NCBI GenBank assembly: GCA_023231475.1
Contig: JALJEE010001644.1
Span: 62,001-116,252, forward strand
From: Seison nebaliae
Taxonomy: Eukaryota
Direction: 5' to 3'
DNA: 54,252 nt
Part shown: positions 3,501 to 53,414 of the stretch, piece after piece
Layout of the letters: each line of letters starts with the position of its first letter
Numbering within the stretch: position 1 is the stretch's first letter
The notes under the pieces: generated by a model
The model's input: only the letters and a program-made list of their open reading frames with translations
The model's database searches: none
Told to the model about the DNA's origin: nothing
Made by a program: the position numbers and the translations under genes

Positions 3501-4691
3501 ACGAATATAACCATCATTGAATATACAAGTAATCCAGTCACATTTGTACCAGGAAAGAAGATTCAGTATAATAATGCTCCTTATCGTCCTATGAGAAATA
3601 TGAAAACGACATTGACCGAGACTGAGGGATATTCTGTCACATTATTGTTGTTGATGATATTGGTAGATGGAAAGATTCGTTTGAGACAATTAGAAATGTT
3701 TCAAGTTTTACGAAAGAGTATTGAAACGGAATATGCGATTCAGTTGAAAAATGAAAAGATTCTAACTGAACATGACGCCCGAGAAATGCCCCTTTGGCTA
3801 CCTTATTATTTGGATGCCGATTCACCTTTATATTCATTTGAGAAATTGAAAGATCATTCTTCACATTATTCAAATAATTTGAATGAGGTGTACATTACAC
3901 CTTCTCTCTTATCTGCACCATTCTATCAGAATGATTATCCAACTGCTTATCTGTATGGAACTATCGGAATAATCATCGGTCGATATTTCTCCATTGCTCA
4001 TCTCCTCAAAATATTTCTGGAAGAACGAAGTGAAATGGATGACAATTTTCGATCAGATGATAATATTCATCGTTCATCGAAAAAGTATTATTCTGATACG
4101 ATCGGATGTTTAAGTCGTCAGAATGCTGAGCGATATGTTTATTTCGATCATATCGGACAATATGTTAAAATGGAAGATTTCTTGGAATTTTCTGCTAATG
4201 CATTTCCATTCATTCGAGATCGTAGTGGACTTAGTCCCACTAGAATCGACAAACCGTTAGATACGCGCATTAAGATGAATGTTGGATATCAGGCAATGAA
4301 AGAACATGACGGTCTTTATTTGAGTTTAGCTGCTCTTCAAAGTGCATTGAAGACAATGAAAACTTCACTTTATGATCAAACTTATTTTTCTTTGACTCAT
4401 ATTTTCATCTTCTATTTGGGCTACATGCAATCCAATTGTCAATTATTGTTACCTAATCTCTATTTCTTGTATCAACAGACATATTCGGAAGATCTCAAAG
4501 GAAATCTTCAATGGAACTATTATATTTTATATGCAGATCAGATGCATTTGACTCCGATGTTGTTGGCTTTACATAATTATGGGAAGGAATTTGACAAGTA
4601 TAACATAGCTCGCGTAGCAACCATGAACAAGAATTGTAATCAAATTCAATTGCTCAATATTGGCACGTATAGCGTTGGGAAATGTTACTAA
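570..4691 (+). CDS. Neprilysin/M13-family-like type II membrane protein, predicted catalytically inactive
   Basis: Uninterrupted ORF (first in-frame ATG 570). One N-proximal TM helix (YLILFFATLIVLLLLITIFAFLTYYYG). C-terminal NEVYITPSLLSAPFY...LYGTIGIIIGRYFSIAH aligns with M13 NQIVFPAGILQPPFF...NYGGIGMVIGHEITH, and FYLGYMQSNC with FFLNFAQVWC. HExxH is absent. Confidence 0.75.
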   Translation: MKKEINVDDDDDNFLTSSTTTSSSVNVLHAVDDTIYYLYDKLKLRFQRKKTKQRDESKKKYRRDDKDQTYATELSDPNIRGGGSGDDSRLVIDNNEVTYKKPGRIVMRPRNTLRFIDELHEAQSQIQSGFRHYKYLILFFATLIVLLLLITIFAFLTYYYGGFGAEGYLNEKKEIVTEFLIFLDKDDINETISRNMYLVSWKPEFRPQCVSLSETRRPKSTNFARKIKQFDELFMDRPSSVDDNEKLVKNFLMFSCYGSIDETGLNQNLEELSDTYKIFEVNPTSQLLRAKFNVISLQMSQRKLFGPMIDNFVDVLQSSYESLRLKHFRPDIDQFIEEKESFSEYISQPSDYIDEFPKIYQKLTALYQMCQYSLKDQHQHHLRTNDNHLLLLRRLQWYLKHEVFDMKEFVNDNNDKENDLTKLIKSWTINNDEDEEDKDNLFDLIGIDDETARIFLNDVLLKRNLGIESIDDLKGYAENSHSIMRLFAQMNVRCPSSLRRSISADIFQLHAVNDPRYKDKFILRVYVKKTSQVNTLNRDLLFQSISKYLPKFLTEFGIDDFVSRFDDNTVQILKSVFPTISIMTPLQLSEYSIMDSQYFIAPMRVIEELTDLPLYEYVDEYLATLLLFHHNDSPDEYTTRGKNLRDVEIIFSIDDLNILKRFSKFIRLLEFESKTAQLTGVDISPHKYTKSDLAILGKFGMKNSWVADLENMVSSLFKKVRPTDGGNESKAGGTVPKPVTSEKGNEGVNTNGQNEIKEQTISASPVATIDTDSMNPVVVSAGTGNEEIVIGGGGVGQISIGTEGGGIPVISEGATGVTIHEEKEISINFQKNKRDGEDLSNDTPLLHYAKYIVLKYISSTHYYFLNYMKFYHRFTKRNSEQSNRAEFCIRLLSAAFPQAMLSLHAHAFQVENRQFVGVSYDRIRMEDRVKDMIKNLRSKALKNIDEFVRKTSSPSLDKKLKKKLNDMVVRLAFENWITNITIIEYTSNPVTFVPGKKIQYNNAPYRPMRNMKTTLTETEGYSVTLLLLMILVDGKIRLRQLEMFQVLRKSIETEYAIQLKNEKILTEHDAREMPLWLPYYLDADSPLYSFEKLKDHSSHYSNNLNEVYITPSLLSAPFYQNDYPTAYLYGTIGIIIGRYFSIAHLLKIFLEERSEMDDNFRSDDNIHRSSKKYYSDTIGCLSRQNAERYVYFDHIGQYVKMEDFLEFSANAFPFIRDRSGLSPTRIDKPLDTRIKMNVGYQAMKEHDGLYLSLAALQSALKTMKTSLYDQTYFSLTHIFIFYLGYMQSNCQLLLPNLYFLYQQTYSEDLKGNLQWNYYILYADQMHLTPMLLALHNYGKEFDKYNIARVATMNKNCNQIQLLNIGTYSVGKCY

Positions 4692-5158: not shown

Positions 5159-5941
5159 ATGGAAGAATTAATTCGAACTTTCCAATCGATTTATCACGAG
5201 AAACAAGAAGGAAGATTATGTGCACAACATTGTCTAAATAATTTGTTACAACAACGAGCGGTAACCGCCGTCCAATTAGGTATGATTGGTCAAAGACTAT
5301 TATCAGAAATGAATGGAATTTTAAATATTAACGATCAGGAAGGATTCCATGACGATACGGGATTCTTCAGTATAGAAGTTATAGAAAATTGCTTGAAACA
5401 ATATCAAATAAATTTGATAAGATTCAATTCGAAAACTAACGAATTGGCGACATTAGCGAGACAGTCACCATCTCAATCAGTTTTTCAGGCATATGTCTGT
5501 TGGCTTGATGCCCACTGGTTCACTGTGAGACGATTTGGCACTTATTGGTTTGATCTCAATTCGTCATTACGTCAACCAAAATATTTGAGTGATGTTTTAT
5601 TAGATGTCTTCCTCTCACAACTAATTGATGATGGATATTCCGTTTTTATTGTCGATGGAACAATTCCCGAATCAGTAGCTGACATTAATTTTGGTCAATT
5701 TGATCATAATGTTTGGATGAAGGAATATCTTTTATATGGTTTTTCCTAATTCTTCTTCTTCATTTAATATTAATTCATTTTAATCTTATTTTCAGTCTCA
5801 AGAATAAACAGGGTCGAAACGGAAACAATTCCTGTAGCGTCAACTTTAAAGGTCGACCATCCCATCGACTTGACTACGGAAGATTCAACTACCGACGTGG
5901 AACTCCAACGAGTCATAGCGAAGAGTTTATTCGAAAAATGA
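5159..5941 (+). CDS. ATXN3: Ataxin-3-like Josephin deubiquitinase, 241 aa, 2 exons (5159-5738, 5796-5941)
   Basis: IYHEKQEGRLCAQHCLNNLLQ, DDTGFFSIEVI, HWFTVRRFG.YWFDLNS with Cys/His/Asn triad intact. A 57-nt phase-1 intron GTTTTT..TTCAG joins an exon ending in UIM-like DVELQRVIAKSL. Confidence 0.93.
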
Positions 5942-6020
5942 AAATATCATTTGGTGACATTCATAAAATTAATTTTCTACTGATATTTTCTTGATAAATT
6001 TTTTTGAGTTTTCATTCGAA

Positions 6021-8364
6021 ATGTTTCTTATAAAACGAACATCGTTATTTCTCATCATTCTCATTCATCTTAATCTCCTCAAATTTTATTGTTATTTTCA
6101 TAAATTTCCATTATCATCATTATTAATTTTAGTTTCCATCTTTTGTCGATATTGCACTTTTCACACTTGTACGAAAGTTAAACGGATTAATTTATCTACC
6201 AACGTTGTCTTCGATATTCCTTTGGAATATATTCGTTGTAAGGAAACTAATGATAATGTTAAAGATTTATAAGAAATTTAAAACTTTTATCTTTTATGAT
6301 AAAGGAAACTATTCCTGTTTGTTATACGACGGTTTTGAAATGGAAAGAAATCTCTTTTTCTGGCAACATTTTCTATTCACAAACCAGTTCACAATTCTCT
6401 CATTATTATGAATTATAAATTAATTGAAGAAATTGAACGTTCATGTACTTATATCAAGAAAGAAGAATTTAAACATATTCAATCAAGTTTTACGACATTT
6501 GTCGATACGCAATTGAGATATTGTCGACACGATAAGTTTTTGAGGATTTCATCCAAAATTGAAATTAAAATTATTTCTCAGATGTAATTTCAATGATTCA
6601 GTAGCACCTGGAAAATTCCAACATATCAGTTACTATTTATGAAATTCGTAATTATTATTGTGATTATAGAGAACGAGAATTTTCCGATAATCTGCTTTAA
6701 TGGAAATCCGGACATGAATATCTCAAAATATATCAGTTGTCCGAAACTTTGTGGAGTTCGATTAATATCCAATAGTTCCATTCTATGTTCACAGCTATTA
6801 ATAATTTTCTTCAAAATAGCATTAATAGCTGGTTGTTCGTCTGAATTGTCCGGCTCCAATAATATCGTTGATTTCCAGGAAATTAATTGCGATGAAAATT
6901 TGTTTACTTTTAGTTTTATAATTTAAATTAAATTTGTTTGTTTGAAGTTGTAATGAAAATATTTATAATAAACTAAAAAAGAAATTGAATACAGTTTTAT
7001 CATCTACTTCTCCTTCAGAAACAGTGCCCAACATGAAACTACAACTAGACATACAACGAACAAGTCGATATCGATATCCGCCAAATGTTAAAAGTTCAAC
7101 TACTAGGAACTTTCATTTAGTAACGAAAAGAAATTCAACAAATTTCTACGAAACGTCAACAACAAAGAAACATATAAAGGAATCTTATGAGAAACGAATA
7201 AGTCCATTATCATCCACCACCACATTACCTAGTTATTCTTTTACATTTTCTCGTTATTATTCAGAAATTTTTCAGAAATATCTGAGAAATTCAGTTTGAT
7301 CAATCAGCAAATATCGAACCTATCCGATATTCAAAATTTGGTAAAGAAAAGAAACAATGATGAAAAAATGTTATCTTGTTTAGATAATTCTGGATTCTAG
7401 GGCTTTTTTGCACCCCCTAGGACTTTTTTGCACTCCTTTTTTTGAAAGATTGCGAGGTAGGACTTTTTTGCACTCCCATTTAACCTATTAAAAAAGTAAT
7501 ACCTTGCAATCTTTCAAAAAAAGGGGTGCAAAAAAGTCCGATAATGTAATTTTGAGATTCTAAAGTTTTTTCGATTTAGTTCCAAAGATAAAGAAGAAGA
7601 TTTAAATGCTAATTATAAAACGAATAATTCGGAGGAAAATAATCGAACGAATGAAGTTGATGATAATTCAGAAAATTTAATGACATCAATATCATCAACT
7701 AAATTGATTTCAAGTACCAAATCAAATACTTTAGTGACCACAATTAAATTATTTGAAGACAAAAATGAAAGTTATTTTATGATTTAATTCCAATAATAAA
7801 TATTTTATCAGCAGTTCAATTAGCGGAATATCCATGGCCACCTCCATCGGATCGTATTGGTAGAAATTTAAATTTAACTAAAATATTTTCTGATGTTGTC
7901 CTTGAATAGAAAAGAGTGTCATGACACGAGAAGGATATCGATGTGCATTCCCATTTCATTATAAGAATAAGATTTATCACAATTGTTTGGACGCGGGACG
8001 AGAAGGAAGATTTTGCCAGGTCTACAACCAATTCCCAACAACCAAATGGGGAAGATGTAGCGACGAGGCTTACATCGTCATTAATAAGACGATTGTTGAG
8101 AAAGGAATTTGTATGAGCCCTTGTCAATTCTATGCGAATTACGGAAGCTATTGTCAAATCGGACAGAAGATGTTAAAATGTAAAAGTTAGAGAATGATTA
8201 GAGAATTCCAAGTTCATTTTCTTTTATTAGAAATACAAAATTGTCACTTTCCCTTTTACCTTTATGATAAGTGGAATTATAATTGCGTGAATATGAGACA
8301 AGAAGATGATGAAAAGAATGTATTGATTTGCATGAATAAATTAAAAAGATTAATAAAATGTTGA
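6021..8364 (+). CDS. Secreted multidomain protein: signal peptide, two Ly6/uPAR-like Cys-rich modules, S/T-rich linker, two fibronectin type II-like domains (13 exons)
   Basis: Twelve short introns give one continuous frame: MFLIKRTSLFLIILIHL..; IFCRYC..C..VCY..IERSC..YCRHDKCN; IICFNG..SCPKLCG..AGCS..NCDENFCN; FN2-like GYRCAFPFHYKNKIYHNC..FC..WGRC and NCHFPFYLYDKWNYNC; stop TGA 8362-8364. Confidence 0.65.
7398..7539. mobile_element. MITE-like inverted-repeat element inside intron 9 (7370-7579) of the Ly6/FN2 gene
   Basis: 40-bp inverted repeats at 7420-7459 and 7500-7539 (2 mismatches). The motif GG(A/G)CTTTTTTGCAC occurs three times direct and once inverted. The host intron is 210 nt versus the usual ~50. 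Confidence 0.75.
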
Positions 8365-8424
8365 TAAAGGAAAAACTATGTGGAAAAATCTAAAATTTTC
8401 TCTCTTTTTCTCTTGCTTCACATC

Positions 8425-8914
8425 TTATCCTGTGAACGGTGTCATATCACAATAGCAAGCCAAAGTGGCAATGCCAATTGCACAGAGTTGTGGACAGACA
8501 TCATTTCCATTCATCATTCGTTTGTAGGTGGGATAAATGCGTTTCTTGAGGATCATATAATGTCGATTCTCATAGTCTGGCAACCAGTTATCATCTGTTG
8601 TTTTCATCGTTTTACGTTCTCCCAACGAACTTTTGATCAATTTGGACAATGCTTCCAATTGACGATCTGTATGAGATTTCTTCGATACTTCATCTTAGAA
8701 GAGATGAAATTAGACGGAAAAGAAAATTTAAATTGAACTAACAATTTTTATTGCATCGAGTTTGACAATAATAATGGGAATTAACTTCGCTATTCTTCAG
8801 ACAATTACTCATGCATTCATTGTCGTCGTTGTGATGGTTATTGTTCAAAACGAAACCGTTCGACGAATAGAAAATTACTGTAAGGATTAATGATGTTAAG
8901 ATAGAACGAAGCAT
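8425..8914 (-). CDS. Putative secreted peptide/neuropeptide precursor, 146 aa, 2 exons (8914-8743, 8693-8425)
   Basis: Signal peptide MLRSILTSLILTVIFYSSNG; 4-Cys segment ECMSNC..YCQTRC; 49-nt phase-1 intron GTTAGT..TAAG; KKR and KR sites preceding MMNGNDVCPQLCAIGIATLACYCDMTPFTG*. Confidence 0.7.
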
Positions 8915-10727
8915 TTCGATTGATGAAAATGATTTCCGAATGAGAATTCTACTCCAAACTGATTCTTTCTCTAGAAAATAAAGTTGAAATGATGAGTGTG
9001 ATAATGAATGAATGAATGTGGAAAATTTTAATTGATGAATATTGGACGATTTTTTTTTCTGGATGTTTTCAAATCGACTTTTTATCTGACTGTTCTCTGA
9101 CTAAAGTTTATGTGAATATTTATGATTGTAAAAGATTGGATGATAAGATAAGAAAGAAAACATGACTATTTTATTCAACCGCCTACAATATCTTCCTAAT
9201 GATAAGTTTGCCTGAGTTGATTCCCAGAATTAGATCGATTGATCGACAACTCCTCCTACTCTTATGCTAATAGAAAATAAGATTTTTTCTCATTCAATTC
9301 TCCTCGTATATTGGACCTACTCCTTCACTACGATCAGACGACACGCTCAAAATATGAAAGATAGATGAGGATAATTCCATCAGTTCCACCATGCAATAAT
9401 CGAATTAAAAGGAGAAATGAAAGGAAAAGATTTGGAAGTGAGCTAAGCCTATTTTGTTAAATGGAAAGGAAGAAATTGTATTTTGATCGTGAGAAAATTC
9501 TAAATTGGATGTTAATCCTTTTCAAATAAACTTACTTAATGTCGTCATGACATTGATTCGGAAGAATATCTGATGTTCTCATGGAAAACAATAGAAATTA
9601 CGTGGGCTACCAACATCCGTTAATTGTTACTCCATTCAAACAAGACTGTCGTGCTCGTCAAATCTTTGAAGAAAGATTGTATTCAATTCCTGTTTGAGAC
9701 TTTATCCGTTCCTTCTTACAATATCTTCCGCTATTCTAATTCCATTTCTTCCTCCTTTCTCTTAAAGGATACACGACATCTCTTAACATCAGCCGTTATG
9801 GTACAAGAGACTAACACAGCGACAATCAATTATGCCATTTCAATTAACAATAATTTGAAAAATATTCAAGAAACTGAGAAGAGAAATGACATTTCATTTA
9901 ATCGGAGAAAAATGTTGAAACAACAAGGACATCTCTCCTCGCTGATGTTGAGCCATGCATCCTCCCCCAATTCACCATCTTCTCATTTATCATGTCCTTC
10001 CTCAACACTTCATCGTCGTTAGTGAAAGTTTTTTGAAAGAATTCTCCCATCCAAATGTCCCACAAAAATTCTCTTAAATTTCTTCTAATTCCTTCCATTT
10101 TTATAGCGAATCATCAATCGTTTAAAGAACAGTTTAATGAAAAATTAGAGAAATTGAAGAAGAAGAATTTTGATCTAGTGAACAAATATTATCCTCATCT
10201 AATAGATGGGAATGATGAAGCAAAAAAATAAAATAAAAAAATTCAAAATTTTAAAATATTTAAAGTTTAATAATGTGATAATCCTTTTTAACTTTTTGAT
10301 GAAATATTTTATCTTCAAAAAACTATTAATATTGTTGATTCTCAAACTGATTAAGAGTTTCTATACAATTCACAGTTAAACAAGTTTCCAATTTGGGAAA
10401 ATATAAGTCAATTAGGAAAGTTCCTTTATTCTTCCAATCATCAGATTTTTCATCATCAGGAAAATAGAGCATTAAAAAATTTTAAGTTTTTAAACTTGTT
10501 TAATTGGCTAGTAAATTTATGAAAAGTATTGAAATTAAATTTCAGAGAGAACAATTATAAAATGAACAATAAAAGGTATAAAGGGAAATAGTTGCCTAAT
10601 TTTTGAATAAGAACTTAAGAAATAATAAAATTAATAATCAAAATTTCTATAAAATTTGGTGAATAAAGAAAATTCAAATATCATTCAAAACTTATATCTA
10701 AGGAATAGAATAGAAACAATTCGAAAG

Positions 10728-35387: not shown

Positions 35388-36883
35388 GTCGCTAAGCAAT
35401 GAAGATGAAATGTGTATTATTGGATAGAAATCATGAAATGCTTTTATCATAAATTAAAAGATTACACTTCACATGAGTAAAAAGGAGGAGGAAGAGATTG
35501 CATTCTGTGTAAAGTAACAATAAATTAGGCTAAATAGAAAATACTCAGATGAATAGGTGCCTTTCTATATTCCATTAGAGGTACATGGAATATGTTTCGA
35601 TCCATGTCGGTCCGAATAAATCTTTCCATCTTTGAATGAATGACTGAATGAAAAAAATAAAGATTTTCTCATCAATCACAATATTGTTACCATCGTATAA
35701 TGTTACTACTTTTATACGTATAATAATAGGAGAGAATAATAAGTTCACCTTTAATTTTTATCTGACACTACAAACCAACATTGAAATATACTTCCTTAGC
35801 ACACTATTCCTTTTAACAAGCCCTCTGTTTCTTTTACTATCACTCATAATTTCTCCGGAAAAATGGAAGCAGTTGTAAGAATTAAGAATAGTCATGATGG
35901 TGATGATGGAAATTTCACATCAATTACTCTTTGCTCCATGAATCAATGTTTTACATGAAATCCTTCGAAAACAACAACCTTTATTCCAGTTAGTTAATTC
36001 ATCTATAATTGTCGACTTGTACTATAAAGATAATGATATGGAATAATGATGCCTTAGTCTCTTAAATCATTTAATTTATATATAAATATATAGATGACTA
36101 AAATTAGACAGCATACTTCTTCTATATCATTTCCAATGAATTCACTATCGATTTTCCTTTCAATTTTATATTTTCTCCTTCCATCTTTACATTTAACCAA
36201 AATTTTTATTTATGAATTGCATAATTCCCGAATAATGATATCCTACGGAAATTTGAGAGTTCTCTTTCTTTTTTTTGTTTACTACTGAATAAATATGGAG
36301 TTCAATTGCACTTGCAAATTCTGCGAAAAACTTTTCCTCTAAATTTAGTTATCGAGCTACTTATCTTTTGAGCCACTTCCTAAGTAGCTCCAACGAACTA
36401 CTTCGTTGGTTAGTTGTCTAAGACTTTGAAAGAAATTGACATTTTTCGATTGGTTTATTTAATTGATTAAACTTATTTTATAAATGAAATATTGAGGTGC
36501 TGATTATATTACAAAATCAATCAGGATTTACAATGAAGAATTAAGTAGCGGATTTGAGAAGATGTAGGTAGATGGACAGGTAAACGGAGATAACTATGTT
36601 GAATAAATAAAAGGAGAAAATTAGAAATATAATTATTGTTCAGAGGAAAGTAATGACGATATTTAATTGGAAATGTAATACGAAAGTAATTTATATATTG
36701 CACTCGAGAAGTTCGGTACGTGATACGATAGTGCTCGGGGAGATGAATGCAATTTAAAATGTATTAGAACCAGTTCCTTCTTGTTAGTGGAATTACATGC
36801 TTTGGAATTATATTTCTTTGAATCACCAATTCTTGTTGATTTTATCATGATTATCTATTGGAGTTCGAAGAATATATCGTTCT

Positions 36884-39273
36884 TTATGCAACGTATACAA
36901 TCCAGTAAGTGAGACTAAATGCAAAGAATGCTAATGGAAAAATGATTCTTGCGAAATATTCTACATTATTCGCTCGGCAACGACCTCCACAATAATCGAT
37001 ATATTGCAAACGGTCCTCATAATAATCGTCATTCTCACAATGATTCCTGTTATTATTATTAGAGAAATTGATATCTTCTGATTTGTCATTTAAGCAGAAC
37101 GACAAATTCGTCTTTCTATTCTTTCCACCATTCCTATCTCGTCTAATATTCCGGTCATTCCAACACAATTCAATATCGTTCGTTTCTGATTTGGATAATT
37201 TGTTTTCTTTTGATGCATCTGAAGGGAATTGTGATTTTGGTAATGTCTTCCATTGATTATCATTACACGAATAAATAGTGACAGGCTGGCCAAAGGGGAA
37301 TTTAATTAATGATTTCGTATTGGTCATATCTTTCGTTAGAGTGAGATTTTCCTCCGAAAAATTATCTTCATCTAAAGTTGTCACGTTGCTACTTTCTTCA
37401 CTAACATCGTTGTTATTGTCGCTATTGTTGATATTATTGTTATTGTTGTTATTGGTATTGTTGTTATTGGTATAATGACTGGCATTATATAAAGTAAATG
37501 TTTGAGGTACTGAATGTTGAACGATGATAGATGAATTTTGATTTTGTATAGGAATTTGTCGAGGAGTCCCACCATGACGTTGACGGTTTATGGTTGATTG
37601 ACATCCAGGATTTTGGGTATGATTTGTGCAATTTGGATATATCTCATCAGTATGGACAGGAGAATAATAATTGTCTTTGTCCATTTTAGTTTGAACTAAC
37701 ATCGGAATAATCGCTTCATCTTCCGGATATGTCTGACTGTCTTTACTTCGTCGTTGAGTAATCGATTTTCTAATTTTCTTTCTTCGGCGTTCTTTATCAT
37801 TCCTCACTTTCTCTTGCCTTATCAGTACATTGACTATGGCAAATTCCAACAATGCGAAGAAGACAAAACTGAGACATGTGGCATTCCAGATGTCGATCGC
37901 TTTGACATACGACACTTTTGGAATATCTCGAACACCAGCCTTCTGAGTGATGATTGTTAGAACCTTGGAAAAGAAATCAAATTTATTTGAAAAGAACTAT
38001 CACAATGTCAACTGTTAATAATCCAAGTGTGACTCTTGCAGGAACAGCTTCAGCATCAATCCAAAATGAGAACCACGAAAGAATGACAATGAGAATTGTA
38101 GGAATATAAGTTTGAATTAAGAAATATCCAGATTGTCTCCTTAGAACAAACGTAAGAAGTAGACCGGAATATGTACCTGAAAATTGAATTTAGAAATCTC
38201 ATTTTCAAAAATTGAATAAAACCTGTACTATGAATTCGTGCCTCTGTTGAATGATTGTATTTCTTGAGGAAGAATTCTGGTAATTGAAGTTTTCGATTAA
38301 CTTCAACCGGAATTGTCTTATTTGTCCAAATTAATCGTATTTTCCGATTTGTATATGCATCTGGTATTTGAACAATTTTAAAATTGAAAATTTAAAAAAG
38401 AGAAATTAAACAGCTTGCCACTTCCATCACGCAGGTTTGTGTATCGAAAGGAAAATATCTCATATCCATCGGACAAGACATTCTTAGACTTAATCTAATT
38501 TTAAAAAAAAACCACTTGAAATTTTAATGAATGAATAAGATTCACCTCTGACTATAAAGAATATCACCGTTGCTTCTTATGCGGAGTAATTTGTTTGGTT
38601 TACTAACGTCATGTGAACGACCTTCACGATCGTTGGCGAAGAAGGTGTCAGGTAACCATAACTGATGAATATAATGAGTGAAAGATAATTGAAAATGAAA
38701 TTGGAACTTTAGATAATGTTTGAGAGTCGAGAGTCAACGTCAAATTCATTAATGATTTCTTTGACAAATGTGCAAATTGATCGTGCACTATATGATGCCA
38801 TTGAAGACGAGGATCATTCCAGCGTTGTCGAAGATATAATATTATCCAATAATCCTGTACAAATGGAATTTTAAAGGAGAAGATTTAACAATCGAACCAT
38901 ATTCACGTCGTTGACAGCATACATCTGTACCACATAAACATTAACTTCGACCGTTGTGGCTTTCGATCTTTGTGCTAGAAATTGTGTTTAATAATTTGAA
39001 TCGTCAGTGATGAGAAAAAGGAAAACCGTTTGGATGATCATTTGCATCATAATTGTTCATCAATTCACGGAAAACGTGTGTTACATTAACTTCGATATCG
39101 GAGGGAAACGTTTCCTTCACCTCTTCATCATCGGCGAATGTTTTGGGAGTTGGACCGTCGTAATTAGAATAATCAGAGAAACCAAGGGCACTTACAGATA
39201 TGTTGTTCCAGGAAAGGAGAGAAAGATAAAATAAGAATAATATTTTAATAATTATTGGACAATACTCATCCAT
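36884..39273 (-). CDS. Cys-loop ligand-gated anion-channel subunit 2, 8 exons, long Asn-rich M3-M4 loop
   Basis: [21 protein letters not shown]; Cys-loop [17 protein letters not shown]1 [18 protein letters not shown]2 [16 protein letters not shown] (PAR anion motif); [11 protein letters not shown]4 [12 protein letters not shown]. Confidence 0.95.
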
Positions 39274-42200
39274 AATCCATTCAATGAATGAAATTATTGT
39301 TATAGATGGTGAGAGACATCTAGACACTATATGAGAAGTTAAGGAGTAATAAGATGAAATTTTAGTAGAAATCTTTAAAAAAAGAAACTATCGAATATGA
39401 TGTAATGAATAATAAAAGAATGCGCTACCAAGATACGTATATGTTAAATAAGTTTGTATAACTTTCCTCATACTATCCATTTGATTAGTTCGATATGTTA
39501 CAGTCGAACATTAATGAATATATAGATCATCCAATCTGGTGTGATGGTTGATAGAAGGAGAGAGTATTACTATTACTACTAGTATAAGTAGACGTGTGAA
39601 AATAAGAAGTTTTGCTTTTCTGAAAATCCCAAATTGACGAATACGAGTTAGAAAGAAGAAAAAGAAGATTTTATTTATAGTTCGACTCCAAAACCCAAAT
39701 ACAACCTCTTCAATGTCAAGTATTCAATCGAACGCAACTTTCCACATGATACCACTAATCGTAATAACGATGATTGTGTTATTAACGGAAAAGGTAAAGT
39801 GTCGATCAGATGTATCATAAGATCAGTTTAACAAATCTTTTAATCTATATTTCTCTTCTCTATATTTCCCCACAAATACATGCGCGAATTAAAAAAATGC
39901 AGAGTCATTGCACTAATATTGCATAAAAGGCACGATTACTATTAGAGGAAGATGATATAACATTCTACTATTTACCATATGAACATAACGACATACTCAT
40001 ATCGGTACCTAAATATCAAATAGAAAACTGAAGACAACTAATGATATAAAATCAAATGGCATATTATTCTCGTAACATATTATTCTTCTCTTCAAATCTG
40101 AGGTGTCTTATTGTTCAAATACAAAAGTAGAAGATACCTCGTCTCTCCTCCATCTCTTCCTCATAAGATATTTCCTCTAAACTTTTCATTTCAAATATGA
40201 CTGACACCAAATTCCATATTGATAATATGTCTACCGATGTAATCATTAAAATTATTTTTTCTGTGCATAAACTTTGGTATTTGTTCGGTCATAAGAATTT
40301 TTCAATTCATCTTCCTATTTATTTTACCTCAATCCTTCTATTCAATTAGTGATATTTAAAGAACGAAAAGAAAGAAGTAATGTCTCTCCTACAAAATCAG
40401 AAAGTCAATAAGAACTGATGCCATTTCTTTAATTTTCCTTCAAATGACGAATTCATCTATATTCCCCCAACTTCAAAGTCGATATTGCCTTCAAAAAAAA
40501 AACGATAAAAATATTAAGAGATTGAATATTTTCTCCTAAATATCGTGATCGACCAAAAAGGAAATTTGATTGTTTATTATCACTTATCAACCAGATTGTA
40601 GACGACCTACTGAAAAATGACTACCTACTTCGACTACATAAGTCGACGGAAAATGTTTTATCTGTCGATAAAAATAGATGGAGAATAACTTACATAGGAA
40701 TCATCGTCTGATATCATTATCTTTCATTATATTAAACATCAACGATTTGTTGAAAGAGATCGTCTTTTTACTTAAAATCATCAAAACTCTTCGCTATTCA
40801 ACAATTCGAATATCTGAATTCATTTCAATGTAGCTTAGTCAATTTGACTCGTTTCATAACTAATCTATGTTAATTATTAATTTAATTTTGTTCATGGTTA
40901 AATTGTGTCGATCTTCTGATCTTCAAATAATAATATTGAATTTTTCGTCTATTCCGGATAATTGCAACCTTCGTCCCCAACTTCGATTATCTGTATTTCA
41001 TGACCAAAAAGAATTTCCGCGTCACACAGAATAATTAAGAGAAAATTATAGAAGAATTCTTTTCAACAACTTTTTTTTCATGGATGTCTCTGATTTTGAA
41101 GAACTAAAAGGAAACAGGAAATTTTAAAGAAAAATGAAAAACAAATTTTCTCGTTTTGTTACTAATTTTCTTCATTTGAATTTTTTTAAGGTGATTTAGC
41201 CGAAACATAATATTAACTAAAAAAAGGACATTATTGCTTTAATGGACATCCAACATACCTAATACTATACCTACTAAATACATAATAGTACCTAGAAGCT
41301 AAAACGTAGCTTATCCATTGGAAACAACTTGAATTACAATTCCTACTTTTTGACAAATGTAGAGTATATCCATTCAATGAATTGGTATACATAGAAAAGG
41401 AGAATTTTTGAAGGAAATTAGCTTTTACAAATTTTATGTAATAAATGAAGGTAAATTATTGATATGTTGTAACATAGTTTAGTCGAATGAACAAGCTGCT
41501 CTCATAGACAAAACAAATCGAAATTAGAGCAACATTAATTTCATAATTTTTAGCAATTAAAAATTTGTTTGCCTCATATATCATTAGAATATATATCAGG
41601 AGAATGTTCCAGCTTTACGTGTCGATGTTGTGTTTGAGTATAAACTTGATTCTCACTTAACAAACAAACGGCAAAGTACAAAAAAATGGTAAAGAAGAAA
41701 AGGAAGAACAATATTATCAAACATGTAATTTGATCGCGCTTCATATATGAAAGGAGAATGTGTAAACCGGGAAAGATTCTCATGTTTAATGATACAATTT
41801 CTAGGTCATCCCATCTATCTAAACAATTCCAATTGATAATAATCACTGCAATTTAGAGTCTCTTATCTTAACATCCAACTTTCTAACGTTTCGTTAATAT
41901 ATTCATTCCTTCTGATCATCTTCTCAAACGAAAAAGATTTGTTGTAAATATTTCGAGATATTAAAATTCAAAAATATTGACTTATATTTTAGTTTATCAA
42001 TTTATATTTATATATTCTGTCAGTCGATTTATCCTAACTATAAATGTTAAGTGGGAAAAATTCTCACCGGCTATTCTATGTACCACAACATAAAGACGGA
42101 TGATGATGAACATATTGGGATTCTCACATTTTGAGATTTTTACATCATGTCCCACCGGAAATATTACACCAGACTTTATTGTTTTCAGATCAGGCAATCA

Positions 42201-44081
42201 ATTTTTAAGAAACTGTCTACTAAATGTTGTTAAGACGAATTTGTGAAGGAAATGAAAAGAACTAATAGATTTTATGGAGTTTCAAAGAAATTCTCAAAAT
42301 ATTGTCATAAACGAACAGAAAACGATGAAACTAATTGCGTCTTGTTCGAAAATGCAAAGTTTCGGAGCCAAGTAGATGAATGTGAAAATATTGCTCGTGA
42401 TGAAAGCACTTGAATATGATGACAATAAGTACATAAGATTGAATAACATTTCAATGTCAATAGAGAAGGAAAACTTCAGTTTTTTATCAAGTAAACTCTA
42501 AGAAAAAAGGAAGAACATATTCCTTATTTAATAAAATGCCTTGGGTCTTTCTGTTCATATTTAATATATCGAAAATTCATAATAAGTACACATCCATTTT
42601 AAACTATACCATTTCGAACAAATGAGAATGATATATTTTGAATGAGAAGAAATTCATACAAATAAAATCACTTATTCGACAAAATAAACTGAAGTTGATT
42701 TCTATCCATGAGTCCAATTGAAAAAAAAAGGAATAAAGAACCCAATCTTATTCAATTCGAATGGACATTTTCTTTACTGATTTACTCAGTTTTCTCTGAT
42801 AGAACAAACAATTTGTGTTTATTTATGTAATATCTTATAAATAAAAATCATAGACAGGATTATGATAAGAAAATTTAATTAATTAATTAATTTCATTTTA
42901 AAAGAAATTAGTTTCGTATAATGCATTTCCTATCTTCCTTACTTTTTCATGTCCACTTATATGGTATTCTTATTCGATAAAAAAGAATTAATGTTTGAAT
43001 AATAATAATAATAATATCAGGCAGGCGATACATTCTTTCTGATCTCAAGGAAAGTTAGAAGTGAAATACTAAAATAACATTCCTATGAGTCCAATTGGCA
43101 TACGAAGGATGAATTGATACATGAGCATCTTGTGCTCTCTGAAACCTAATGACATCTACTGCTTCTCTCCTACTCTACTAATCTCATATTGCTGACATTT
43201 AATCAGAGCAAGTATTTTTGATTGTGGCACATTGTCTGTCAACTGAAATAAAATTGAAAAACAATTATCTTTCTAATCTGATCTAATCGAGACTTATTAT
43301 AATCTATTCCATCAAGTTTTACTGTTTCGATTTAATTTGATCGGTTAATATGAAGTTTTATTCATCCAATATCTGAAACTAACATAATAATTGTAAGAAA
43401 ACTCATTTGAATAATAGATGTTCTATTATTAATTCGGTTACTTTTTATTTCTATTAACAAATTATGTTCTTAAATAATTCAGGTTGGATTGGAATCAATT
43501 GAATGGAATTATTCGGAGAACAAAATTTAAGTGAGATTTCAAAAAATTATTTCAGAAAACTATTTTCTTTCCGTATTTATAGGCATTTATTAAACATAAT
43601 TATTTTACCTGCTTTCGTCAGAATGATATTATCACCATCGGAAATGGAAGAGAATTTGTATTAAATGGGAAATTATGTTGAATTGTAACAAATTAGTTTT
43701 CCCTTCACAAAATTTATTTTTCTGCAAATGACGCTCATCTATGTTTGTGTAATTACGTGAGAGTATTTTCTTTATCAGATTGTGACGTCGACTATAACAG
43801 ACTGGTAAACAAAGATTCGACTGTTAACTTACTTAACTCGACGTTCCCTCGACTGGAAAATACTTAAAAAAAGAATTTCAAATATTTTTATTTATTTAAC
43901 AGATTTCCATGTCGTTGAGATGACGTAAGAAGAAGAAAAAAAAGAAGAAACAATTATAATAATTCAATGTTCAAAGGAAATAGAATTATTATGAAAAAAA
44001 ATTAAATTTTTAATGAAAAAAAAATATTTTCCATCTTCACCAAATTAATTCCATTCGATGGAAGATGATCTGTTTTAACGA

Positions 44082-45003
44082 TTATTCAGCAAATGCTATT
44101 TGCAACTTATTCGTTTCATCCAGTTGATAATCAGACATATCCCGTTTGGCTACTGCTGCGTTCGCTTCCGAATCGAATTCGACGAAGGCTATTGTCGATT
44201 GATCAGGAACGATTCTCACATCTTTATATCCGACAAATCTACAAAATTATATGAATCAATAAAATTTAATGATGTGGATGATAAATAACCGTGAGAATAA
44301 TTCATGGATTTTATCCTTCGTTGTTCCTTCGATAAGATTCTTTAAGAATAATGTGTTACCTTCCGCCAATTCTCTATCCAAATCGAATACCATTAATTCA
44401 TATTAAATTTAAATAAAATCTAACCGATATTGAGGGACATGTTTCGGTTTCTTTCCTGTCATAATTCTCTTGTTCATTTCTATGTTAGATGTTCCTTTCT
44501 TTTGAGCAATTATATGAGAATTCGTCTTGGCAAATTGAATTCTCTAACATTCGAGAAAACATTTTCTTTTCTAAATCTCTAAATAAATTAACCATCGGTT
44601 TATCATAAAATGGAAATGATTGCATACATTTCAACGCATCACTCGCACTACTAATATCATCAAAGATAACGAACGCTTGTCCTCTCATTTTGAGCGTACG
44701 AAACGCTAGAATATCTAAAATCTTTCCGAATTGACTGAAAATCGCATGTAAACTCTTCTTTAAATCTTTGAAAAAAAAAAGTTGAATAATTTACAGAAAG
44801 AAATTGGAACCATTCTTCTTAATTTTCTCGTTTAAATTATTGATGTAAATCGTATGGTTTGGAACCGTTACCATGGTCGGCGGTGCCATTGGAGGTACGG
44901 GAATCGTATTAACCGGTATTGGTGGCATTTCATTTTGATTGGGAATAATTGGAGCATCAGGATGTGCCATTGGAACATCAGGTTGATTGGGGTCAGATAT
45001 CAT
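44082..45003 (-). CDS. snf: U1A/U2B''/SNF-family snRNP protein (two RRMs), 5 exons
   Basis: [71 protein letters not shown]2 [37 protein letters not shown]. Confidence 0.95.
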
Positions 45004-45566
45004 TCTGAATTTAAAACGCAATAAATTCGACAGAAATTTTTATTGAAAATTTCTCAGTTTATCTTAAGCTAAAAATAAAAAATTCTTAAAATGTTAAAAA
45101 AAATTGGTAAAAAACTTGAAAAATAATTTTCTGATTAAGCGAATTGGAAACATCTTCTCCCCCCAAATATTTTTAATTCTTAATATTTTGTGGTTAAATG
45201 TTCAGTTATAAAGTTTCTAATTGGAAACAGAAAATGGAAAAAAACATTACTAATTATAAAAGATAATCTAATTCATCTAAAGAATAGTCATAAAATGTTT
45301 ATTGTTAATTGTTTGTCCAGTTAAATTGGCGTATAACTTATACGTCATAATTAACTATGATCTGACGTCATTATGTCGATAAATGGATAAAATTGAAATA
45401 AAGTATTGGAAGATTCCTTTCGAAAGTAATTTATTTTTCTTTCGAATTGATATTTGGAGGAGAAAATGTTGGAAGACAATCGATAAATTGAATATTTTTT
45501 TTGCTATTAACCATAACCACTGATTAATTAATGAGAATTGTAAACTCATTTTCTTCTCTAATAAAG

Positions 45567-46386
45567 GGACAACGACGACGAAGAACCTGACGAGAATGAA
45601 GATAATGAAGATAATGGAGATAATGAAGATAATGAAGATAATGATGATGATAGTAGAACAACATTAAGTAACCCAGTTGTCAGAAATGAAACTAATTCTG
45701 AAAATTTGAATATTTCTTTGGAAATAACAAGTTCTTCGATAAATCATCTCTTTTCAGAAGATAATAGTTCTACATCTAATGGTCCACAGTACTCCACTAC
45801 TGAACCATTAACAATCAGAAGTTCCACAAGTTTATTCATAAAAGATTCTACGTTGACCGATCAATTGACAAGTATGATGAGTTCCATATCTGGAATATCG
45901 AGTACCAGAAGCACTGAGTTAGATGAAACTTCTTCGAAAATTTATCTCACATCTCTTAAAAGTAATAGAATATCATCTGGTGTGTCATCTACTGACGAGA
46001 TCGTACAACAGGAAGTAAGATCTTCAACTGAAGATTATTCTACTGATGATTCGACTGAAATAACGAATTTGATTTCTAGTGATTCGACATTAATATCTAC
46101 ACTTACAAAAACGACGACACAAACTACTACCAATCTTCCAACTAGTTTACCATTCATTTCAACATCGACAGCAAAAATTACAACAACAATAACAACTACA
46201 ATTACTACTATTAAAACTTTCAGAGATACTTCGTCATTAATTTCAACTTCCCTTATAACAACTACTACTCTAGGTAGTACTAGTACTAGTAGTGAAGATG
46301 GAACATCTATCAAGGATCGAGAAACTAGTTCCAATACTCTAATTTCTAGTCCTTCGTCCAATAACACAAATAACATCAATGTCTAA
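45567..46386 (+). CDS. Probable terminal exon encoding an acidic (EDN)n then Ser/Thr-rich mucin-like region; upstream exons unresolved
   Basis: Frame open from a candidate AG acceptor at 45565-45566 through a 9-bp GAAGATAAT repeat into the 226-aa S/T-rich ORF. No in-frame ATG at its start. Confidence 0.5.
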
Positions 46387-46626
46387 TTGATTCTTGTTCT
46401 TTAGGAATTAGTTTCATATTTTTTAGATAAAAAATTTCACATATTTAAATCTCAATTGTATTTTTAGTTAATAAATAATAAAATAAATAAAAATGGAATT
46501 TAATGTTATTTCATTTAGCTTTTCTTAAATAATAATCTTATTGTGATGATGAAAGGAACAAGATAAATAAATTTTATTTTCAATTAGAAAGCTTCCGAAT
46601 TCTTCAGTTAAACAAATTTTTTTTAA

Positions 46627-46964
46627 ATGCCGAAATCAGTTCCGAGAGACGTCGGTCCAATTATTCAATGGATCCGTAATCGTTTGTTAATGAGACAAGT
46701 GGTAACATCACATAGATTCGAGGAATATTATTCTCCTAGAACTTTACCCAAAGTTGAATTGCCGAAAGGTGAGAATGATCATATCAGTTCCAACGACTAT
46801 TTTCAACGTGATGGAAGACGAATGATGGGAAATCCAGAAAAAATCGACTTAAATTTAAGTTTATTCTTAATTTCCTTTCAAATTAATCAAAATTCTTTCT
46901 ATTTCCAGATAAGAAATTTACTGGCGAATCATATCAACCAGGAAAAATCCATCGATATGATTAA
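46627..46964 (+). CDS. NDUFA7: Complex I accessory subunit NDUFA7 (B14.5a), 2 exons (46627-46858, 46909-46964)
   Basis: IIQWIRNRL..SPRTLPKVELPKG..ISSNDYFQRDGRR matches NDUFA7 LIQRLRNW..SKRTQPPPKLPVG..LSNNYYCTRDGRR; 50-nt intron GTTTAT..TCCAG. Confidence 0.9.
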
Positions 46965-49900
46965 ATATTAATTTTATTTGAGAACAACATTTTTTGGAAA
47001 ATTTTTTTAATTAAAAATTTCATTTAGTTCGAGACAAAAAATCTATTTGACAATAAACAAGAAAAAATAAATTTATTAACTCGGAAGAAAAATAATTAAT
47101 AAAATTTTCTGGATGAATTTGATTAATTAGAGATGATGCGCTAAATTGACATTGTTTGAAATTGAGGAGATGTTTCATATAAAAAATTAATGAAAATTGA
47201 AGATGAGAAAGAGAGAGAGGCGTTCAATAAAAAATTTTACCGATTTGATTGATGAAAAATTATTTTTCCATCTTTTGTGGAAAAATCATTCGTCAAATGG
47301 AAAAAACGAATAAAAATGTTCGTCGGAAGATATGAAATGAGCGACGACATTTTCCTTTTGAGATATTATTTGCCGTTCTCATCCTCCTTTTGTCTTCTCT
47401 TCCATCAGATGATAGTCGTCATTAATTTATTTCCTTCCCTCGAATGCGCGTTATTCTTTTGTTGATCTTTTGTCTTATAAAGAATTTTAATGGAAATATA
47501 TTCATCTTTATCTCCCAATAATTATCTGCCTTAAAAAAATAAAGTTCCCTTCTACGAATTTCCATATAAACTTCATAGAAATCATTCTTCTTATTATTAT
47601 TGTTCTCATTCAACGAAGTTTTACGAGAAAGGAAATTTATTCAAAAATTTATTTATGATTCTCATTCATTTCATAATTTTGAGAATTCATCTGATTTTCA
47701 AATAGAAGAAATTTGCATATTTATTTCGATGATTCCTCAAAATAATCCTTTCCAATGAGATGCCGCCACAGTCAAGTCGAGTGGGACATGATCGTCAAAT
47801 TCTCCGCACGCATATCCGATTGCAGTTGAAGATGTATGCGGCCAATTCAAATCGATTCTATCTTCAATCATTTCATGATTATTGGAAGTAGTTGTCATCA
47901 TCGTTACTACTCCGCTTCGTCGGACGAATTAATCGAAAGAAAGTAGAATGAAGTGTCGGAAATTTGACTGTTGAATGTTTGGAGACATTCTCTCCGTTCT
48001 ATAGGTAATCAACAGTTCCAACTGACAACTTTCGTTTCTTCTCCTATTCATTCACGAGTCTATTCCCAAAGTGGTTGGAATCGAAATTGAGGAAAAATAA
48101 AAAAAATATTAAAAATTTAACAAAAAAAATTCGGTATCTCATTTTTAGTATTTGTTCATTTGGTATCCCATCGATTAAAGGATAATAAAATAGTCATAAC
48201 GATAATGTAAATGGATGTGTGAAATGTTTTCTCTCATTTCAATTTACACTCTAATTTACTCTAATTTACCACATTTAATTTAATGGAATTGAGTATAGAA
48301 CACAGGAAGGAATTTCAGTCTCAACTCTTTATTACCAATTATTCACTTAACTTCCATTTGTCTTTCTATTATTTCTTTCTCCTTTTCCTTAATTTGTTTA
48401 TTCTCCAAATATATTTTTTATGAAATTTCTCAATTTTAAGTTTTGTCGATTTTATCTCAATAATTTCTTTCATTATTAAGTCGTTGATGTTTAATGACTG
48501 ATAATATTGATGATAATATACTTCAATTCGTCTCTTGAGGAATTTAAAAGAAAAATGTTCAATTGCACGTGTGACTGTTTGAATAAAATATCTGGAATTT
48601 TTTATTATTCATTTTTTTATGGTGAATTTTTGAATTAGAGAAAAATTAGTGAGAACAATTATGAGAAAGATCGAGTATGTTAGAAATTCTTTTTCACAAT
48701 AGATAAACATCAATTGTAATTGATTCTAATCGATTCGAGAAGAAATTCATATTATTTTTGTAATTATACTCATTTTCCGTTTTCGTCACTTCGAGCAAAC
48801 TGTCCAAAACTATGGGAGTCATTAATAGGAAAGGAGGGAAACTAATAAAAAGAAATTAGGATTATTTATTTCATGAGTAGACGGAGAAGTTTGGTTTGTA
48901 TGATTTTCATCTTAAGTACCAGAAAGTTAGAGACTGATTATTATGATATTATTTTGGTTGCAACGAAAATTATTTTGATTGTTGGATGATTAATAATAGA
49001 AATAGGACTATTATTCTGCACATTAAGATTAGGCAGTACATTAATATTTTAGAAGTTATCCACATTAAGTTTCGGTAATTTTTGAATGAAAGTTAATCTC
49101 TAGTAAATTGCCACATTGCATGCATTCATTTCCCGTAGAAACGATACACCTTTCGACATTGATTGTCAGGCAATCAAAAATGAATTTGCCGTTCAATCTC
49201 CAATTTGCCTTCAGGTTATTTATGTAATCTGAAATTGATGCGAGAGCTTGTACTTGATTCACTTTCTCCATTTACTCAAATCGTCCATCCATTTCTAACA
49301 TCATCCGAGTAATACTCATCAACACTCCACCTTTAGAATGTCATCGAATCGTTTCTGGATTGGGGAAGGAGGACTCATATGATGGATATGTTAATTATGG
49401 TGATAATCCGTCATTAGCTAGATTTGAAGAGGTGACGAGAGAAACATCGATTAGTATAATGTAGTTTATGAGCACATTAACCATTTCCAGTGCATTAGAA
49501 GTAGCAAAAGGGGATGTATATCTCATTGTTTGAATATGTTTGTCAAATTGGGAAATTGAATTTGATGTGGCTGAAATAAACAAGAATAAGAATTTTGAAA
49601 AAAATTTTCTTTTTAGTAATTCAATCAAATTATCATCAGATTTTCATCGTTTTATCCACTTTCGTATTTTTGTCCATCTGATTTAAAATGCATCGAAACA
49701 GTATCGTATTCCGAATACAATTGTTTACATAAGGACTCGTTATAGAATATGGAAACAATGAGTAGGAGCGCAACGAATGGATGAATTATTCCGATTTAGC
49801 TATTAGTAATCATTTACGATTTGCTTCAAGAATATTGAGGCGGATATTTCATGGTGTCTACAGGCCCCAAATTTATGATTATGTTACCCTTATTCTGTCT

Positions 49901-52900: not shown

Positions 52901-53414
52901 GTAGAATCTTATCATTTAATAAATAGACATTCTTTCTTTAATACATTCGTCTCCAATTATGATATTATTCGAATAATTCCAATTCCACCACACGAATAAT
53001 AATAAATTCTTCTCATTGTTCTTCGTTTGTTATCCGATTTCTTCTGGTCAAGTGTCCGAAAGTTAAAGAAGGAAAATACTCTAATTTCAAATAATAATGG
53101 AATGTCGTTTGACTTATAGTCCAATATCTCATGTTTGATAGGACGCAAATAGTAAATACTTTAGAAAATTTCGAAAGTTTCTTTTTGTGGAGTTTCAAAA
53201 ATATTTCTCTTCCTTCTCATTTGTTCTTAGCGATAACACTTAACCGATAATTGTTATGGTCGCAATTTCTCTCAATGTTCATATCTGTTTTCCGTTCTCT
53301 ATTTCCTTATTTCAAAAACTATTCCATAAAACGAAATTTAATATTTTTCTTTTTTTTTCTTTTCAGAATTAAAAATTCGATTTTATTAGAGTAATTCCAT
53401 TAAATCATCGAGAT

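Follow-up and report, generated by a model that had tools for sequence, protein, structure and literature searches.

Few features of animal splicing are as constant as the purine at intron position +3 and its pairing with U1. GURAG sites (R, purine) make up 53.6% of human donors and AG//GU sites most of the remainder (PMC11732430), and in Caenorhabditis elegans the same two classes account for 44% and 32% (PMC11347140). Donors with U at both +3 and +4 are described from Entamoeba, where U1 carries compensatory changes and the ACAGA box of U6 is unchanged (Roy and Bowser, bioRxiv 10.1101/2022.06.08.495308), a precedent for co-change of U1 and donor behind +3U. We analyzed the 5' splice sites of Seison nebaliae, a member of the rotifer–acanthocephalan clade with a compact genome of ~46 Mb and 32% GC (PMC8351084), in a window of 54,252 nucleotides (nt) of contig JALJEE010001644.1 (assembly GCA_023231475.1, positions 62,001 to 116,252). 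Almost every intron recovered from this window begins with GTT, and we weigh what kind of spliceosomal change could account for it.

GTT donors in the Seison window

Fifteen gene models were built, each reading through from start to stop once its introns are removed. Four NCBI proteins of S. nebaliae could be placed exactly on the window, and the remaining models were drawn from reading frame, Pfam domains and comparison of paralogues. The YARS1 exon at 12115-13335 is 100% identical to NCBI protein SNEBB_008215, SNEBB proteins match four further genes in the window, and our WDR61 model, made beforehand, equals SNEBB_008214, which was retrieved afterwards. Nine named genes (ATXN3, a peptide precursor, WDR61, YARS1, TAF11, receptor-1, receptor-2, SNF and NDUFA7) hold 30 introns, 29 of which begin with GTT. 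An initial annotation of this DNA had counted 29 introns there, giving receptor-1 seven instead of eight; its single exception to the GTT rule stands and is GTGAAT at 38545. Our recount agrees with its seven introns carrying +5G in these genes and with its 11 GTT donors out of 12 in the Ly6/FN2 gene (the exception being GTAGAA), and the five donors that it quoted lie where it had placed them (GTTTTT at 5739, GTTAAA at 11532, GTTTAT at 13693, GTTTGT at 33295 and GTTTAT at 46859). The labels 'Ly6', 'peptide precursor' and 'SNF' are presumed identities, and Ly6 is putative. Five added models (three tandem paralogues, a DCDC1-like gene and a second WD40 gene) bring the modelled introns to 68, with 63 GTT, 3 GTG and 2 GTA donors and a median length of 47 nt. 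Together with four introns known from transcript alignments alone, they form the final set of 72, all on one contig; possible genes at 9100-10200, 39400-43800 and 47000-53400 stand outside these counts. Intron density in the window is 2.3-2.9 per kilobase (kb) of coding sequence.

Across the full set, GTT stands at 67 of 72 intron starts (93%, 95% interval 85-98%), beside three GTG and two GTA; no intron begins with GTRAG (0/72), +3 is a purine in 5/72, and AG|GT occurs at five of the 72 donors. All 72 are GT-AG introns, 40 of them coinciding with transcript gaps, and GTATCC, the core of the U12 donor motif (PMC3033335), is found in none of the 72 donor hexamers. T follows 42.5% of all GT dinucleotides in the window and 53.7% of those within intron bodies, and the binomial probability of 67 GTT starts in 72 is 1e-19 against the former rate and 3e-13 against the latter. 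The GTT-start observation is confirmed: it is real, supported by transcripts and far above chance.

The junctions come from a published table (PMC8351084, supplement 2) that gives alignments of assembled transcripts to the S. nebaliae genome assembly, made with a splice-aware program; the rows for one of its contigs match the window once a single fixed offset is applied. We converted 29 listed rows; two extra rows over a 5S ribosomal RNA (rRNA) gene are gapless. Junction counts refer to the transcript rows listed and to minus-strand genes, and further rows may add or contradict junctions. Each gap was slid across all equivalent placements before its intron was called, and 40 of the 41 gaps are unambiguous minus-strand GT-AG introns (37 GTT, 2 GTG and 1 GTA). 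The gap left out, 19371-19415, also begins with GTT; the one placement that yields GT-AG is on the plus strand, within a gene of the minus strand, and differs from the model by two bases. Exact matches to transcript gaps were found for 36 of 46 minus-strand model introns, the models having been made before the RNA table was seen, and the four transcript-gap introns absent from the models are all GTT. RNA junctions at other, canonical GTR donors, the outcome that the initial annotation had named as contrary to its claim, were looked for in the transcript gaps and did not occur. Ten minus-strand model introns are unconfirmed, of which six are uncovered, one corresponds to the ambiguous gap and three overlap, in full or in part, rows that are unspliced (judged by hand). 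Among the tandem paralogues, the donors at 16383, 17512, 22026 and 22197 are transcript gaps, 19410 is ambiguous, five are without coverage, and 17341 and 16566 lie wholly or partly within unspliced rows. Sequencing runs X1-X5, also compared with the window, were DNA-like and contained no splice joints.

Whether GTT is forced or chosen can be read from the neighboring sites that go unused. A rival donor was taken to be any GT from -45 to +30 nt that, with some nearby AG, preserves the reading frame. On this basis, 41 of the 63 modelled GTT introns have no frame-compatible GTA or GTG rival and 53 have none that would give an intron of 36-62 nt. The unused frame-compatible donors carry C (20), T (20), A (15) and G (15) at +3. 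The GTT site is used in all eight RNA-covered introns that have an in-frame GTA or GTG rival of normal length. At 35082, ATG|GTTTTC is used over GAT|GTAAAT, and two unused canonical-type sites are listed in the table. Outside the RNA-covered set, a GTG in frame with the TAF11-like donor at 33569 lies 3 nt upstream of it. Alignment to outside homologues, applied to 20 introns of WDR61, YARS1 and the two receptors, favors the modelled donor or leaves it as the sole option in 19; the one donor that it disfavors, 34416, is confirmed by RNA. The earlier proposal that donor choice departs from the animal norm is therefore upheld, in that +3T is near-obligatory, confirmed by transcripts and preferred over GTA or GTG neighbors in 8/8 cases.

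Donor anatomy and candidate mechanisms

Information in the donor is concentrated at +3 (~1.1 bits), with at most 0.3 bits at each of +4 to +8; T reaches 93% at +3 versus 31-56% at the five positions that follow. Fainter preferences accompany it: +5G in 15/72 versus 6.5% background G (p 5e-5), +4A in 33/72 (p 0.012), and a GTTAG start in 9/72 (p 2e-5). T at +4 (22/72) is below the intron background of 48%, +6G is absent from all 72 (p 0.008 for zero at the background rate), +7T is unenriched (30/72), and the hexamer GTTTGT occurs in two of the 72 donors. G precedes the intron in 23/72 overall, and in 4/5 non-GTT donors versus 19/67 GTT donors (Fisher p 0.033). The introns are short, typically ~47 nt, with 70 of 72 between 36 and 62 nt; their bodies are 48% T and 6.5% G, compared with 17% G in exons. 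Acceptors are relaxed (TAG 34, CAG 25, AAG 13 and GAG 0; n=72), and the branch-point motif YTRAY (Y, pyrimidine) was found in 35/68 introns versus 29 +/- 4 in shuffles (p 0.09), a difference short of significance. One intron of 210 nt (7370-7579, +) owes its length to a palindromic insert at ~7400-7545 that resembles a miniature inverted-repeat transposable element.

The DNA runs also contain low-depth contigs (depth 3-5 versus ~30) that are ~82-90% identical to the window in exons and unalignable in introns (34120-35400 and other exons), and we read these as a diverged relative. A second lineage of S. nebaliae has been described (PMC8351084). In one clean case, the donor at 34743, the alignment to this relative continues through +3 and breaks from +4; three more donors are compatible with a break after +3, though not decisive.

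Since the introns are GT-AG and lack the U12 motif, they are likely removed by the ordinary major spliceosome. In the standard register, position 6 of U1 lies opposite intron +3. A U-to-A change at this position would give U1 the 5' end ACUAAC in place of ACUUAC, which would pair with GUUAGU, and the ideal donor would move from GUAAGU to GUUAGU. Such a U1 would make +3U the rule and leave the old +4A and +5G preferences as a trace. In non-GTT donors, the lost +3 pairing could be offset upstream by -1G, and the higher -1G frequency in these donors is as expected if such compensation takes place. Because the donor carries so little information, we infer that length and composition must help to define introns, a role that might fall to the narrow range of lengths and to intron bodies rich in U and poor in G. 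We consider the chances evenly balanced that an ordinary major spliceosome with a predicted A for U opposite +3 explains the GTT donors. The broader proposal, a genome-wide rewritten donor code in an intron-rich animal, in which a predicted A at U1 position 6 reads GUU donors otherwise near-empty of information, is offered tentatively and at slightly under an even chance; the genome-wide pattern would be extrapolated from 72 introns on one contig.

Several points weigh against a changed U1. Watson-Crick pairing over nine positions averages 5.1 with the predicted U1 and 4.2 with the standard one, so that the mean is still low with the predicted U1, and the gain merely follows from +3T. U6 could account for the +5G and +4A traces just as well, and these do not call for a changed U1. 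Most lineages with atypical donors (yeasts, Giardia, Trichomonas, Thecamonas and Mamiellales) keep a standard U1, though there it is +4 that changes (bioRxiv 10.1101/2022.06.08.495308). The evidence comes from a single contig, and within it five introns (16514-16566, 17295-17341, 28574-28631, 34860-34906 and 44544-44592) are wholly or partly unspliced in some rows, as read by hand; that at 34906-34860, in receptor-1, is unspliced in the single row covering it. These rows may represent inefficient splicing or pre-mRNA. Finally, GTT is weakly depleted among intron-like exonic decoys, at one of five thresholds (3/17, p 0.04), the next giving 10/34 (p 0.12).

Searches for the U1 gene itself covered several sources. 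An Rfam scan of the window returned 5S rRNA alone at the curated threshold and no small nuclear RNA at E up to 1. A metagenome scan for U1 with the altered 5' end gave one match, rejected as chance, on a bacterial-looking contig without an Rfam match, and a scan of viral contigs for standard U1 gave none. Among genome contigs, seven loci were recovered, five with standard U1 genes of other organisms, and the Seison U1 was not among them. Five prokaryotic genome bins had contigs carrying eukaryotic U1 genes (two also U2, one 5S), which represent host contamination.

As the main alternative, U1 may be standard, with +3U arising from altered U1C, LUC7 or TIA-1-type proteins that read U-rich sequence, or from selection at U6 transfer, where the G of ACAGA would wobble with +3U and PRP8 or SNRNP27 would be changed. 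We regard this as possible, with the balance clearly tipped against it. It agrees with the retention of standard U1 by most atypical-donor lineages and with the proposal that GUUUGU could pair better with U6 ACAGA (bioRxiv 10.1101/2022.06.08.495308); donor choice has also been argued to be committed at U5/U6 transfer, and SNRP-27 affects +3 (PMC11732430, PMC11347140). The T content of the intron bodies likewise suits proteins that read U-rich sequence, but a general preference of this kind fails to single out +3 from the positions after it. A U6-led shift predicts +4U, and since +4T is below the intron background, with +4A enriched, such a shift is not suggested.

A further alternative concerns novelty and is compatible with the predicted U1 change: the +3U rule could be common to rotifers and acanthocephalans, or to several AT-rich compact animals, with Seison as the extreme case. 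In nematodes, bdelloids and some mites, GTT donors are a substantial minority class. Examples of GUU donors in C. elegans are on record (PMC11347140). Against this, our literature search turned up no report of GTT-dominated donors from a rotifer, and we judge a shared trait to be rather unlikely. The search, of full-text literature with few subscription journals covered, found no account of Seison splice signals, no GTT-dominated animal, and no donor statistics for bdelloids, monogononts or acanthocephalans. GTT-dominated donors are thus apparently undescribed in any animal, and their being shared by other rotifers or acanthocephalans is the main risk to that novelty.

The initial annotation had spoken of a shifted splice-site code. 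A changed code is what we find, but a one-base shift in register is unsupported. Standard U1 pairing in a shifted or bulged register (GU-U-AAGU), as in rare human donors, would fit the combination of +3U and mild +4A; it requires, however, the +6G that every intron lacks and a +7U that is unenriched, while the enriched +5G is an in-register position, which leaves this pairing very improbable. Similarly doubtful is a donor relaxed to GT, with introns defined by length and composition and GTT a product of AT-rich mutation bias. The uniform lengths, the near-empty positions +4 to +8, the relaxed acceptors with AAG in 13 introns and the lack of a branch-point motif above shuffles would all be in keeping with it. 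Composition, though, predicts ~54% T and 21% A after GT, where 93% and 3% are seen, and GTT is still chosen when the unused frame-compatible donors carry all four bases. We consider the mutation-bias explanation largely refuted, and the definition of introns by length alone, which the initial annotation had entertained, is disfavored, as neither length nor AT richness would account for +3T at this frequency.

An artefact of gene prediction or assembly is refuted: although public models may derive from a trained predictor, one of them (SNEBB_008211) is wrong in fusing two genes, and the splice-aware aligner misplaced or ambiguously placed 1/41 gaps, three DNA runs match 27500-47400 in long pieces without differences (one may be the window's own source), the 36 junctions built from frame and homology are exactly those of the transcripts, and homologue scores back the modelled donor in all but one of the introns tested.

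Introns by gene and other features of the window

The introns and the two unused rival sites are collected in the table. Six of the eight receptor-1 introns have codon and phase in common with introns of receptor-2.

Table. Introns of the Seison nebaliae window by gene, with two unused rival donors (positions are those of the window)
Feature	Position	Strand	Donors	Basis and remarks
ATXN3 (Josephin) intron	5739..5795	+	GTTTTT	Pfam Josephin; NCBI model SNEBB_008211 maps here
Ly6-like/FN2 gene, 12 introns	6091..8230	+	11 GTT; donors at 6091, 6258, 6387, 6536, 6629, 6775, 6902, 7232, 7370, 7771, 7860 (GTAGAA), 8186	fn2 domain; 11/12 from exact NCBI-protein mapping, 6091 from own model
Secreted peptide-precursor-like gene, intron	8694..8742	-	GTTAGT	Reading frame; identical transcript gap
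WDR61, 3 introns	11384-11435, 11532-11638, 11718-11763	+	All GTT	Equals SNEBB_008214; no alternative frame-compatible donor
YARS1, 2 introns	13334-13378, 13693-13739	+	Both GTT	Exact mapping of SNEBB_008215; no alternative donor
Intron immediately upstream of 377-residue open reading frame	14997..15047	-	GTTCGT	Transcript gap alone
Three tandem paralogues, 12 modelled introns	16334..22197	-	11 GTT; GTGCTC at 21389	Gene models
Paralogue region, RNA-only intron	19914-19866	-	GTTAGT	
DCDC1-like gene, 7 introns	22971..27914	-	6 GTT; GTGATT at 23697	Pfam DCX2_DCDC1; 6/7 are transcript gaps, 23471 uncovered
Second WD40 gene, 9 introns	28574..29972	-	8 GTT; GTATTT at 29448	7/7 modelled are transcript gaps
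Second WD40 gene, the RNA-only introns among its 9	28767-28723, 29972-29932	-		
TAF11-like gene, 3 introns	33295-33337, 33426-33468, 33569-33624	+	All GTT	Pfam TAFII28; reading frame
Cys-loop (glycine-receptor-like) receptor-1, 8 introns	34155..35320	-	All GTT	Exact mapping of SNEBB_008221; 7/8 are transcript gaps
Cys-loop receptor-2, 7 introns	37964..39026	-	6 GTT; GTGAAT at 38545	Exact mapping of SNEBB_008222; 7/7 are transcript gaps
SNF (U1A/U2B'') gene, 4 introns	44239..44810	-	All GTT	RRM matches U1A and U2B'' chains; 4/4 are transcript gaps
NDUFA7 intron	46859..46908	+	GTTTAT	Pfam CI-B14_5a; reading frame; no alternative donor
Unused in-frame canonical-type rival (22035)	22030..22038	-	GAG|GTAATA	9 nt upstream of used CAA|GTTGAT (22026)
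Unused out-of-frame canonical-looking site (22220)	22215..22223	-	CAG|GTAGGT	23 nt upstream of used CAA|GTTCTT (22197)

Several genes have features of their own. SNEBB_008211 (759 residues; 5159-8364, +) fuses ATXN3 to the Ly6-like/FN2 gene via a 208-nt 'intron' (5925-6132); a stop codon at 5939-5941 ends ATXN3, and the Ly6-like/FN2 gene begins at a separate ATG (6021) with a hydrophobic start. In the TAF11-like gene (30209-33761, +), the domain is preceded by a first exon of 1,030 residues with 32 SKK repeats, in which Lys makes up 25% and Ser 14%; the product has the appearance of TAF11 joined to a basic protein of chromatin or sperm type. The three tandem paralogues (16116-22602, -) encode highly diverged proteins of 483-525 residues with common intron positions and a C-terminal hydrophobic segment; the exons tested gave no Pfam match. 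Between them, an open reading frame with an in-frame stop and without a Pfam match (20073-20730, -) may, as judged by eye, be a retroelement remnant. The SNF (U1A/U2B'') gene (44082-45003, -) is intact; its first RRM is well conserved, and its N-terminus is extended by a proline-rich stretch. An intronless gene (570-4691, +) encodes a 1,373-residue protein with a weak Pfam match to M13 peptidases, which is probably inactive as a protease because HExxH is missing. A single 5S rRNA gene (15779-15897, +) lies among the protein-coding genes.

Comparison with known systems

An animal with near-exclusive GTT donors would allow two questions to be addressed from public data. One is whether co-evolution of U1 and its targets is possible in a genome rich in introns, transformed donors being mostly known from intron-poor genomes with tight signals; the other is whether the +3 base is set by U1, U6 or proteins. 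If U1 has changed, this would be U1–donor co-evolution in an animal, and would have come about with neither the loss of introns nor the tighter signals seen in Entamoeba; if U1 is standard, splicing would be efficient with about four base pairs of U1 contact. In either event, the GTT rule matters for gene prediction in the rotifer–acanthocephalan clade.

The Seison introns share with the canonical GURAG and AG//GU classes a U2-type GT-AG structure and residual -1G, +4A and +5G. Those two classes together, however, cover ~99% of human and 76% of C. elegans donors, whereas in Seison GURAG is absent and AG//GU is confined to five introns. Shifted- and bulged-register 5' splice sites, reportedly characterized by Roca and Krainer, belong to introns that begin with GUU as in Seison, but they need the +6G that is missing from all 72. 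The +4U preference of lineages lacking METTL16 or SNRNP27K is likewise not seen, +4A (33/72) exceeding +4T (22/72). Entamoeba is nearest in the base at +3, which in Seison too is nearly always U (67/72), and introns are GT-AG in both. Entamoeba, though, is a protist with few introns, whose donors follow a strict hexamer (GUUUGU in 88-90%) with U at +4 (bioRxiv 10.1101/2022.06.08.495308), while the Seison region is intron-rich at 2.3-2.9 introns per kb of coding sequence, with +3 alone fixed, GTTTGT in 2/72, +4A more frequent than +4T and +5G at 21%. Seison donors thus resemble the Entamoeba system in +3U but stand outside it, as the strict hexamer is missing and the region is intron-rich.

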